Shown: positions 10,057-12,754 of the stretch, one piece after another
Numbering within the stretch: position 1 is the first letter of the stretch
Layout: every line of letters begins with the position of its first letter
DNA from: an uncultured Nitrososphaerota archaeon
Lineage (GTDB): Archaea; Asgardarchaeota; Njordarchaeia; Njordarchaeales; Njordarchaeaceae
NCBI GenBank assembly: GCA_964518475.1
Contig: CAZFGR010000016.1
Location: 1 to 33,908, forward strand
DNA length: 33,908 bases
Direction: 5' to 3'
The notes under the pieces: model-generated
What the model was told of the DNA's origin: nothing
What the model saw: the letters and a program-made list of their open reading frames with translations, nothing else
Database searches by the model: none
Made by a program: the position numbers and the translations under genes

Positions 10057-10184
10057 TGGTCGGGGCGGCGGGAGTCGAACCCGCGACCTCCCGGTTTCTG
10101 TATGAGCGCCCGCTGGATCCCCCGCGGCTCCTATGGAGCCGCTTCTACAGCCGGGCGCTCTCTCCGCAACTGAGCTACGCCCCG
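10057..10184 (-). tRNA. tRNA-Tyr(GTA) with 49-nt canonical intron (10096-10144), CCA encoded
   Basis: C1-G72 acceptor CGGGGCG/CGCCCCG-A-CCA, CT-GTA-G^A loop, intron ACAG pairs with C32-T35. Confidence 0.93.
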
Positions 10185-10672
10185 TTTTTGTGAGTTAAGG
10201 TTTTAGGCTTTATTTTCTGCTCGGATCGCTAATTTATGATTTTTTTCCCCATTCTTCATAGTATAATCTCCTTTTATCAGACTCTTTTTAAATTTTCTTT
10301 CTCACGCTGATACTCATAGTTTTATATTCTTACCATTTTGGAGATAATTATCACTTACAACTAATGCTTCCTCCACTTGTACATTCTCTAAGTACCGGAT
10401 CTATCTGATGGTCTTAACCACACTGTATTATTTGTCAGAAAGGCATCTCAGTTTTACCAACTATCAACCAGAAATAGTCCTCTAACTACTAATTACTGTA
10501 CTAAATTACCAAATTTATATTTATTATTATCTAACAACCTTAGGAGCAATGATCCTCATCGATTTCTATTTTTGCTGCCTTATATCTGACTCCGAAGAAA
10601 TATTGGTTAGAGAGACTATTCAGGTAATCTAATTAAGTTTTGTGCTTCGTGCTAAGGAAATTTTAGAATAAA

Positions 10673-11137
10673 GTGTTAGAGATGAGGAAGGTTTTCGAAA
10701 CGCTGAGAAAAATATTGCACGATAGAAGGGGTTCCCCAATAACTGAGGAAGCATTATTAATTGGCCTAGCAATAGTTATTTTTACAGGTATTTTAATGCT
10801 GGTATCTAGTATAAGAAAATTCATGGAAGATCAATATCAGAAATTTTCTGAACAATTTTCTCAAACAATTATGGCCTATGGCTTTAATGAAACAAACATC
10901 CCCGATCTTGGAACTTATTTAAAATCTTGGCCAGCTTTACTTGAAAAAATGCTGTCATGGCTTAAAATAATATTCAACTATTTGGTTTATGCTACGATGT
11001 TTATTGGCGGCATTATGATACTCTGGGGCGCTATTGAATGGGCTACTGGTTATAACGAATTAAGTGGAAAGAAAACTATCGTTCGAGGTATAGTCTTAGT
11101 CACATTAGCTCTAGCGCCCATACTTGTGAATTTATGA
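10673..11137 (+). CDS. Putative pilin: N-terminal Flp/type IV prepilin joined to a C-terminal VirB2/TrbC-like helical hairpin
   Basis: Class III signal DRRG|SPITEEALLIGLAIV with E at +5; C-terminal IGGIMILWGAIEWATG...GKKTIVRGIVLV two-helix pattern. Likely start is the ATG at 10682. Confidence 0.6.
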   Translation: MLEMRKVFETLRKILHDRRGSPITEEALLIGLAIVIFTGILMLVSSIRKFMEDQYQKFSEQFSQTIMAYGFNETNIPDLGTYLKSWPALLEKMLSWLKIIFNYLVYATMFIGGIMILWGAIEWATGYNELSGKKTIVRGIVLVTLALAPILVNL

Positions 11138-11787
11138 CAATATTTCAGGTTCTAGAAATGACTCCATCAAAACAAGTGCTATTATTTTTAATTCTCATAA
11201 CTATAATGAGTCTTATAACATATCTTCTGATGTTTAGATTGTATAAAATTGTTAAAAATGTAGAAATCAGTTTTCGAGTTCTTGATTCATTTCCTCTATA
11301 CCTTCTAGTAATATCTAATTTGAACTCTGAAACTTTTTCTCATACCCCACGCACTCTACTTAAGCAAATGAAGCTTACAAAGCCTATATATTTATGTTCT
11401 AGCTATACTGAGCTAATCAATTCATTTGAGGTTATTAAGAATTCTTTATCGCCCCAATTTCTGAATATGCTAATTTCAAGCCTCTCAAATTCATCCAACT
11501 TTTCAGATAAGATTGTTCAGATAACTAGCGAAATTGTTTACACAAGTATTCTACTGAAAAAAGAGATGTTAAGCTTTTTTAATGAAAGAGAAAGAATTGT
11601 CTTTTTCCTAGTAGTGTTTGCTCCACTCTCTCTTTTTTTAATAAGCGTTCTCATTAATTACAACTACCTACTATTTGGATTTCTATGCGAGTTACTTGGT
11701 ATCCTGTTTTGTCATTTCTCTTTCACATCTTTTTATTCTAGAATGCAATATGATATGATTAGAGGGTTGTTAATTGAGGAATATTAA
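11134..11787 (+). CDS. Membrane protein, diverged TadB/TadC (T2SS-F)-like
   Basis: ATGA overlap with the pilin gene; N-terminal TM, soluble helical domain (VLDSFPLYLLVIS...FLNMLISSLSNSSNFSDKI), two C-terminal TMs. Confidence 0.5.
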   Translation: MTIFQVLEMTPSKQVLLFLILITIMSLITYLLMFRLYKIVKNVEISFRVLDSFPLYLLVISNLNSETFSHTPRTLLKQMKLTKPIYLCSSYTELINSFEVIKNSLSPQFLNMLISSLSNSSNFSDKIVQITSEIVYTSILLKKEMLSFFNERERIVFFLVVFAPLSLFLISVLINYNYLLFGFLCELLGILFCHFSFTSFYSRMQYDMIRGLLIEEY

Positions 11788-12463
11788 TGGATGGAGGAGG
11801 AGTATTTCTATTTTCGAAAAAACTAGCGATTATTATTATCTCCATAAACTTCTGTCAGTAATTGCATGTTTAAAAGAAGGTAAACCCATTCTAAGATGCT
11901 TAGGCATTCATTTTAATGAAGGTTATCATCCACTATTATACAAGTCCGAAAACGCTTTTCTTTCACAAATTTTCATGCAACTCCAGAAGAAACTTCTTTC
12001 CAAAATTTTGTTGCAATCGTATCTCCTCTTAATCTTATTGTACAGAAGAACGCCAACCCGAGTTTTGCAAATACTAGAAAAAATGTTTGACCATATACTC
12101 ACAGATATAGCCATTAATTTTGAGATTCTGTCGTATGCGAAGTCGTTTCGGATAAAATTTTACATAGTTACTATCGTTCTTTTCACAATATCGAATATAG
12201 TCCTAAAAGTTTTTTCAATCTCAGAGAAAGAGTATTTTTTATACGTGCTTCAGAGAAATTCTCTACTTTTCATACTCTCGGTGACAAATTTACATCTTTT
12301 AGTAGGATTACTGTTAATACATATTCTAGGAATATCAATAAGCTACATTTACATAATCTACAATCCATTACTCCGAGCTAATAAGACCATCTTACTCAGA
12401 GATGTTCTCGTACTCATCTCCACTATCGTTATTATTAATACACTGATTTGGCTAATACTTTAA
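11774..12463 (+). CDS. Membrane protein, diverged TadB/TadC (T2SS-F)-like
   Basis: IACLKEGKPILRCL resembles the T2SS-F LxxGxsl..AL motif; VLQILEKMFDHI helix; three C-terminal TMs; start uncertain (TTG). Confidence 0.5.
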   Translation: MRNINGWRRSISIFEKTSDYYYLHKLLSVIACLKEGKPILRCLGIHFNEGYHPLLYKSENAFLSQIFMQLQKKLLSKILLQSYLLLILLYRRTPTRVLQILEKMFDHILTDIAINFEILSYAKSFRIKFYIVTIVLFTISNIVLKVFSISEKEYFLYVLQRNSLLFILSVTNLHLLVGLLLIHILGISISYIYIIYNPLLRANKTILLRDVLVLISTIVIINTLIWLIL

Positions 12464-12582
12464 GGAAAAAATCACAATAGCATATTAAGTATTATTGCTC
12501 CAAACGCCTACAAGTACTAATCGACAAGTTTTTAAAAAAGACGTAAGACTCCTAAGAATATAGAGTGGAGAATACCCCATAT

Positions 12583-12656
12583 GGGGCCGTAGTCTAGCCA
12601 GGTAGGATGCCGGCCTGGGGCGCCGGTGGTCGCGGGTTCGAATCCCGCCGGCCCCA
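12583..12656 (+). tRNA. tRNA-Pro(GGG), CCA not encoded
   Basis: GGGGCCG/CGGCCCC-A, CCGGC-CT-GGG-GC-GCCGG arm. Confidence 0.95.
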
Positions 12657-12660
12657 CTAT

Positions 12661-12754
12661 GCCCCGGTGGCCTAGGGGTAAGGGCGCCCCCCTGGTAAGC
12701 TACCTTACACCAGAAAGGGGGAGGTCGCGGGTTCGAGTCCCGCCCGGGGCTCCA
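12661..12754 (+). tRNA. tRNA-Thr(GGT) with 18-nt canonical intron (12698-12715), CCA encoded
   Basis: GCCCCGG/CCGGGGC-T-CCA, CCCCC-CT-GGT-A^A-GGGGG, intron CCAG pairs with CTGG. Confidence 0.93.

Follow-up and report, generated by a model that had tools for sequence, protein, structure and literature searches.

Can one small archaeal gene encode parts of two kinds of pilus? Type IV filaments and conjugative (VirB2-type) pili are regarded as unrelated machines. An open reading frame at positions 10673 to 11137 (plus strand) of the stretch of DNA analysed here (33,908 nucleotides, hereafter the window) had been taken in a sequence-only reading for a Flp-type prepilin fused to a VirB2/TrbC-like conjugative pilin, a hybrid that could link Tad-type and T4SS/Ced-type filament assembly. 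In the following the N-terminal part of the encoded protein is called module A, the C-terminal part module B, and the two genes directly downstream C and D (Table 1).

Genomic setting and layout of the fused gene

The window covers chromosomal housekeeping genes of an archaeon, among them those for FttA/aCPSF1, GatD, RadA, Hel308, ProRS and ELP3. The three-gene locus comprising the fused A-B gene, C and D is bracketed by tRNA genes. Because relatives keep the same FttA ... GatD neighbourhood, the locus is not an integrated element.

Table 1. Coordinates of the locus in the window
Feature	Position	Strand	Basis and remarks
Fused A-B gene	10673..11137	+	Open reading frame list and translation; 154 aa from GTG at 10673
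Class III / Flp-like basic leader, ends at G20	10682..10732	+	Alignment A8; an A24 peptidase is predicted to cut between 10732 and 10733
Module A, mature part: hydrophobic helix and amphipathic tail	10733..10870	+	Separate gene of 54-94 aa in split relatives
Module B: N-x-T sequon, amphipathic helix, two hydrophobic helices, basic loop	10871..11134	+	Separate gene of ~84 aa in split relatives
Gene C, divergent TadB-like (T2SSF), 217 aa	11134..11787	+	Profiles; its start and the stop of the fused gene share ATGA
Gene D, divergent TadC-like (T2SSF), 229 aa	11774..12463	+	Profiles; overlaps C by 14 nt
tRNA genes bracketing the locus	10060-10184	-	One of the three tRNA genes has a long intron
	12583-12657	+	
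	12661-12751	+	

The reading frame and its division into two modules were borne out, each module being a separate gene elsewhere. Translation probably begins at the ATG at 10682, for a product of 151 aa; the database copy begins at this methionine (M4), and every relative does likewise. The predicted cleavage site, the glutamate at +5, the internal methionine and the hydrophobic hairpin with its basic loop all lie where the sequence-only reading had placed them: G20/S21 falls at 10732/10733, glutamates occupy positions +5 and +6, M67 is encoded by the ATG at 10871, and residues 96-150 contain two hydrophobic helices with the loop TGYNELSGKKTIVRG between them. In the AlphaFold2 model of the fused protein (25 sequences, pLDDT 85) helices extend over residues 19-65, 76-122 and 126-150. 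The loop motif WGAIEWATGYNE..G.K is (nearly) invariant in the closer relatives. This conservation, together with an N-terminal motif that stays invariant despite 30-62% identity, argues that the layout of the gene is more than chance. Sequence and profile searches of the PDB gave no meaningful match for the fused protein, B, C or D, and the NCBIfam search returned zero matches.

Such a frame could also arise artificially, through an indel introduced during sequencing or assembly where the stop and start of two genes overlap, since fused and split forms differ by a small indel at a short overlap and the genomes are metagenome-assembled. However, an independently built Logan contig (word depth ~30), which has the identical frame and probably comes from the source sample, is identical over positions 10500-12500 with zero indels. 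Fused frames were also found in at least eight distinct sequences from different samples and assemblers, belonging to three clades and having different linkers. The fused frame is genuine and not an assembly slip, and an artefact is highly improbable.

Fused and split forms among relatives

In an exhaustive search of 1.8 billion representatives the fused protein had one full-length relative, and about 12 further proteins (76-117 aa) matched residues 67-153 only. On the contigs of these short B proteins a separate gene of 54-94 aa, encoding the same N-terminal motif, lies directly upstream (e.g. P0024 and P0025). In every one of the 25 related loci compared, and in the 13 genomes compared from the same order, A and B are adjacent. 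The fusion recurs: fused homologues from other assemblies share 59-67% identity with the window protein, and the fused state occurs in three clades, represented by the window with L012 and L018, by L014, L015 and L028, and by L021 and L022. Eighteen other distinct sequences are split, some of them in the same GTDB genus as fused forms. In a tree of B the fused state amounts to three changes; the well-supported branches are also compatible with a single origin. The sequence-only reading had named two findings that together would speak against it, separate halves in relatives and a stop in the reads. The halves are indeed separate in relatives, but the fused frame is genuine and recurrent.

In the split forms of the closest clade the stop of A overlaps the start of B by 8-20 nt, and B is in the +1 frame, so a small indel of one or two bases is enough for fusion. 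Closely related lineages differ in whether the genes are fused or split, and the split genes share bases at their junction; A and B are therefore probably made in a 1:1 ratio and stay together. The two would then most probably act in 1:1 contact and end in one final assembly. A complex prediction for A (57 aa) and B (84 aa) of a split locus scored 0.00, a value that gives no verdict either way. At least for the fused lineages, which lack a second Flp-like gene, the probable 1:1 production speaks against a filament made of A alone, with B left behind.

Module A resembles Flp-type prepilins

Module A has the properties of a prepilin: it is short and has a basic leader, Gly or Ala at position -1, Glu at +5 and a stretch of about 20 hydrophobic residues. 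In the alignment of 15 sequences (A8), which are otherwise 30-62% identical, the region around the predicted cleavage site reads [GA]/S-P-x-x-E-E-x-L-L-I-G-L-A-I. The residues S, P, E, E, L, L, I, L and F are invariant, the first four of them occupying positions +1, +2, +5 and +6, and the hydrophobic helix follows. Position for position, this is what we take to be the Flp processing motif. An A24 peptidase would accordingly be expected to cut after G20.

The Pfam families Flp_Fap (PF04964) and Class_IIIsignal (PF04021) had no match at E <= 10 among the 15 A sequences, and genome-wide searches with the two families did not recover the A gene. A profile of A, on the other hand, detected one small ORF in each of 175 genomes out of the 201 sampled from the phylum; the genome of the window has exactly one. 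At 57-100 aa, the homologues are as long as Flp pilins. In at least 13 genomes the ORF lies 0.8-5 kb from a Pfam T2SSF match. Three loci from other families of the same phylum (L123, L125 and L134) have the order T2SSE (55-69 bits), T2SSF (32 bits, above the cut-off), D-like gene and A. Motif and genomic association together point to A as the pilin of an archaeal Tad-like system. The view that the N-terminal half is a Flp-type class III prepilin thus gains support from the position of its homologues at the end of operons and from the TadV-sized A24 peptidase encoded in the genome. The A profile found no second Flp-like gene in the genome of the window, and a crude FlaFind-like scan of the same genome revealed no convincing second pilin operon.

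Class III signals are also present on non-pilin archaeal proteins, for example the bindosome proteins of Sulfolobus. By analogy, the signal of A might only direct processing or membrane handling of a small protein complex with three TM segments, and A-B might stay in the membrane as an accessory or as a part of the base of the machine. Such a role would suit the strong hydrophobicity of B and of the fused form, the positive-inside loop, and the fact that most other families encode B alone. It is at odds with the homologues of A that occupy the pilin position in complete Tad-like operons, and with a genome that offers no other candidate for the major pilin of the system. We consider a non-pilus role of A-B quite improbable.

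Genes C and D encode divergent platform proteins

C and D had no match in Pfam, NCBIfam or the PDB; with the Pfam family T2SSF (PF00482) their homologues had none either. Word-based homologue searches with C and D found only C and D themselves. Their relationship to T2SSF proteins was assessed with family HMMs, which were run against 9,227 ORFs made up of 9,085 decoys from the window's own genome and of loci with T2SSF genes. The best 17 non-self matches of the C HMM (A4) were all T2SSF proteins, and all of them ranked above the 9,085 decoys (E 1e-5 to 0.04). The D HMM (A5) matched Pfam-verified T2SSF proteins with E values of 9e-8, 4e-7 and 3.5e-6, and none of the 9,085 decoys. In hhalign comparisons (P 0.002-0.005) the T2SSF signature G.SL..AL was in register with T.Sl..al of C and G.SLe..L of D. 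In the Atlas, C had a feature score of 0.92, and the structure search related D to a T2SSF cluster with a TM of 0.50. The AlphaFold2 model of C was poor (pLDDT 67, below 50 in the cytoplasmic domain) and its Atlas shape search gave no T2SSF row; the assignment of C to T2SSF therefore rests on profiles.

Comparison with the canonical operons indicates that C is the first and D the second gene of the canonical T2SSF pair. Both evolve fast, with 34-37% identity where the pilin holds 67%. As Pfam T2SSF has no match in any sampled genome of the order, we take C and D to be the order's own divergent platform proteins, TadB-like and TadC-like as judged from their profiles.

One lineage of the order (f3; L016, L074, L079, L083, L085 and L086) has A, B and C, and no D-like gene. 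In L016 a ribosomal protein gene directly follows C. In this lineage one T2SSF-like protein may be sufficient.

ATPase and peptidase are encoded elsewhere in the genome

The genome of the window has one T2SSE ATPase of the right kind (G000:C1:210982-212490, 45 bits). With the ATPases encoded first in the canonical operons it shares 36-38% identity (E 1e-55 to 1e-63). An orthologous ATPase was found in 12 of 14 genomes of the order, never beside the A-B-C-D locus. The A24 peptidase (157 aa, G000:C19:6818-7291) has both catalytic motifs, DxxxRxIxN and GGGD. The analysis identifies A, C, D and the ATPase as Tad-like.

Module B belongs to a widespread family of membrane hairpins

Members of the B family occur in 91 of the 201 genomes sampled from the phylum, and in other orders B mostly stands alone. 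In most other families these solo genes have no A, C or D nearby, and their neighbours are housekeeping genes (SF1 helicase, MutS-like, TFB). The primary role of B may therefore be unrelated to pili.

An N-x-S/T sequon is found in the N-terminal tail of B in 20 of 27 sequences of the order, compared with 7% of random windows, and the tail is probably glycosylated. The sequon and the basic loop fit a predicted topology in which both ends of B are outside the cell and the loop is cytoplasmic. With its N-terminus predicted outside, B would tolerate fusion to the outward-facing tail of A.

Two other arrangements of the family were seen. In family f14 (G011, G067, G096, G101, G113 and G121) an A-like gene and a solo B-like gene lie on the same contig at a constant distance of ~17 kb, pointing to synteny that is conserved although the two are not neighbours. 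In another family of the phylum (L110:5548-6235 and L111:5927-6635) the B family is represented by a four-TM protein of 165-173 aa, apparently a doubled hairpin. There, a further hairpin gene of 61-81 aa follows the four-TM gene, beside an RNA polymerase subunit gene.

Likeness of module B to conjugative pilins

The Pfam scores of B were far below the cut-offs, both for TrbC (PF04956, 13.5 bits versus 27.9) and for T4SS_pilin (PF18895, 10.7 bits versus 26.6). Sub-threshold matches to one or the other family were obtained for 5-6 of 16 members of the B family, with best E values of 0.0017-0.0019. Searching the window's own genome with T4SS_pilin and TrbC did not recover the fused gene. T4SS_pilin had no match over the cut-off in the 201 genomes; in two of them (G066 and G042) the fused gene was the best match, with 18.8-20.8 bits (cut-off 26.6). 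The strongest T4SS_pilin match of the 201 genomes (25.4 bits; L135:1159-2109 and L138:1159-2109) was a false positive, a 316-aa EamA-like transporter with 10 TM segments, which shows that sub-threshold scores of PF18895 are unspecific and that transmembrane helices can yield false matches nearly as high as its cut-off. An apparent neighbourhood of A and T4SS_pilin in G003 and G159 was rejected, its T4SS_pilin match being a 10-TM transporter.

The structural comparisons were also of mixed outcome. T4SS_pilin and TrbC clusters took four of the ten rows in the Atlas shape search of the model (TM 0.58-0.59), and the clusters nearest to B in language-model features were DUF3852, T4SS_pilin, DUF2976, TrbC, DUF4134 and DUF6112. 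Foldseek of the fused-protein model against the PDB returned nothing at E <= 0.001. The similarity to CedA1 named in the sequence-only reading did not stand out: chain 8dfu_B aligned to the model over 65 residues (Z 6.2, rmsd 2.6) at rank 45, tied with unrelated, generic hairpins. A profile search of all PDB chains yielded no conjugative pilin at E <= 10, and tblastn of B against 72,556 plasmids gave noise only.

The proposed link to T4SS/Ced-type assembly found no support in the neighbourhood. Neither the window nor any of the 25 related loci contains a VirB4/CedB- or VirB6/CedA-type gene. Only A, B, C and D stand between the housekeeping genes, and the neighbours of the fusion are TadB/TadC-like. 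Taken together, only the Atlas shape and feature searches consistently favour conjugative-pilin families for the C-terminal half; its Pfam scores are far below the cut-offs, and its CedA1 match is no better than that of generic hairpins. We treat the resemblance to VirB2 and T4SS pilins, based on sub-threshold Pfam matches, language-model features and hairpin shape, as a weak lead and not as membership.

In its strong form the hybrid reading would make B a homologue of VirB2/CedA1-type pilins, and a Tad-type motor would polymerise the cleaved three-helix A-B protein, or A and B in a 1:1 ratio, possibly with bound lipid. The conjugative-pilin families among the shape rows and feature clusters, the sub-threshold matches and the best-match rank of the fused gene in two genomes all agree with such a protein. 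So does the predicted topology, which is that of VirB2, with both ends out and the basic loop in, and the conserved sequon speaks for exposure at the surface. That lineages move freely between the fused and the split state implies one shared final assembly, and the genome of the window has no other Flp-like gene. Against this stand the Pfam scores, the transporter that scored 25.4 bits for T4SS_pilin, the PDB profile search and the unspecific CedA1 match. Moreover, we know of no filament of the three-helix Flp plus hairpin type. On balance a true hybrid pilin is doubtful.

The genome of the window encodes six HerA/DUF87 ATPases, none of them beside the locus. One (G000:C11:17464-20055, 863 aa) is of HerA/DUF87 type with an N-terminal membrane segment and a weak match to TrwB/VirD4-type P-loop proteins. 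If B were a conjugative-type pilin, this ATPase would be a candidate for a VirB4/CedB-like motor.

Comparison with known systems

The closest known systems are Tad/Flp (type IVc) pili and their archaeal relatives, the Epd-type pili of Methanococcus and type IV pilus loci with two TadC-like genes (PMC4858521, PMC6668835). Like them, the system of the window has a short prepilin, whose basic leader ends in Gly at -1 and whose hydrophobic helix has Glu at +5. It also has a pair of T2SSF genes of half size, a T2SSE ATPase and a small A24 peptidase that lacks a methyltransferase domain. In Tad/Flp systems, too, the ATPase can be encoded apart from the pilin locus. Unlike them, the window locus has the pilin gene first and its ATPase on another contig, its C and D are too divergent for Pfam, and behind the pilin gene comes an extra one for a two-TM hairpin, with which it has merged in several lineages.

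The canonical operons of the phylum (L123, L125 and L134) have a homologous ATPase, C-like and D-like proteins and an A-like pilin with the motif GSPxxE(E/Q)GLL. Their pilin, however, is a free protein of 71-75 aa encoded at the operon end, and B is elsewhere, in one family ~17 kb away.

Module B resembles the VirB2/TrbC/T4SS_pilin conjugative pilins and the archaeal CedA1/TedC (PMC9905601; PDB 8dfu) in several respects: it is of similar size, a short basic loop links its two hydrophobic helices, both of its ends are predicted to lie outside, and its model is a helical hairpin. It differs in having no significant sequence or profile match to them and no leader of the signal peptidase I type. 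The window locus also lacks VirB4/CedB and VirB6/CedA, and the partner genes belong to the type IV filament class.

In the literature searched we found no description of a pilin-hairpin fusion or of an obligatory A-B pairing. The parts themselves are of known kinds, a Flp-type pilin, TadB/TadC, TadA and TadV, and the locus is Tad-like, not a demonstrated hybrid of Tad and T4SS.

Proposed mechanism

We favour, with a probability of roughly 0.65, the interpretation that two adjacent genes of a rearranged archaeal Tad-like (type IV filament) locus have naturally fused into one, with A as the pilin and C and D as the platform. The 157-aa TadV-like A24 peptidase would remove the basic leader of A after G20. 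Cleavage would expose the N-terminus S-P-I-T-E-E, followed by the hydrophobic helix with its Glu at +5. The platform proteins C and D, together with the TadA-like ATPase encoded on another contig, would then act on this helix. B would be a small membrane hairpin with its N- and C-terminus out, encoded directly behind the pilin gene. As the tail of A and the head of B would both be outside, an indel of one or two bases could join them and leave the topology unchanged.

B may contribute as an anchor or assembly partner, or as a filament subunit; this contribution, like the cleavage, the topology, the glycosylation and the A-B contact, is what we infer from the sequences. A conventional Flp filament is hard to fit in the fused lineages, because a pilin with two more hydrophobic helices covalently attached could not easily be pulled out of the membrane in the manner usual for type IV systems, and because there is no second Flp-like gene. 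A surface filament that a Tad-type motor builds from the Flp helix and a VirB2-like, lipid-binding hairpin, joined covalently or stoichiometrically, would be an unlikely outcome.

Significance

The analysis gives an annotation to genes that are blank in Pfam: a Flp-like pilin family that most genomes sampled from the phylum possess, and the divergent TadB/TadC pair in an order where no T2SSF had been detectable. Beyond this, a type IV-class pilin has repeatedly been fused to a hairpin that at least resembles conjugative pilins, and in this order it always lies beside it. If the hairpin is an assembly partner, it would be a previously unnoticed component of archaeal Tad-like systems. If the A-B pair forms one subunit, the filament would have a new architecture. 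And if the hybrid pilin were true, it would connect type IV filaments structurally with conjugative or DNA-import pili.
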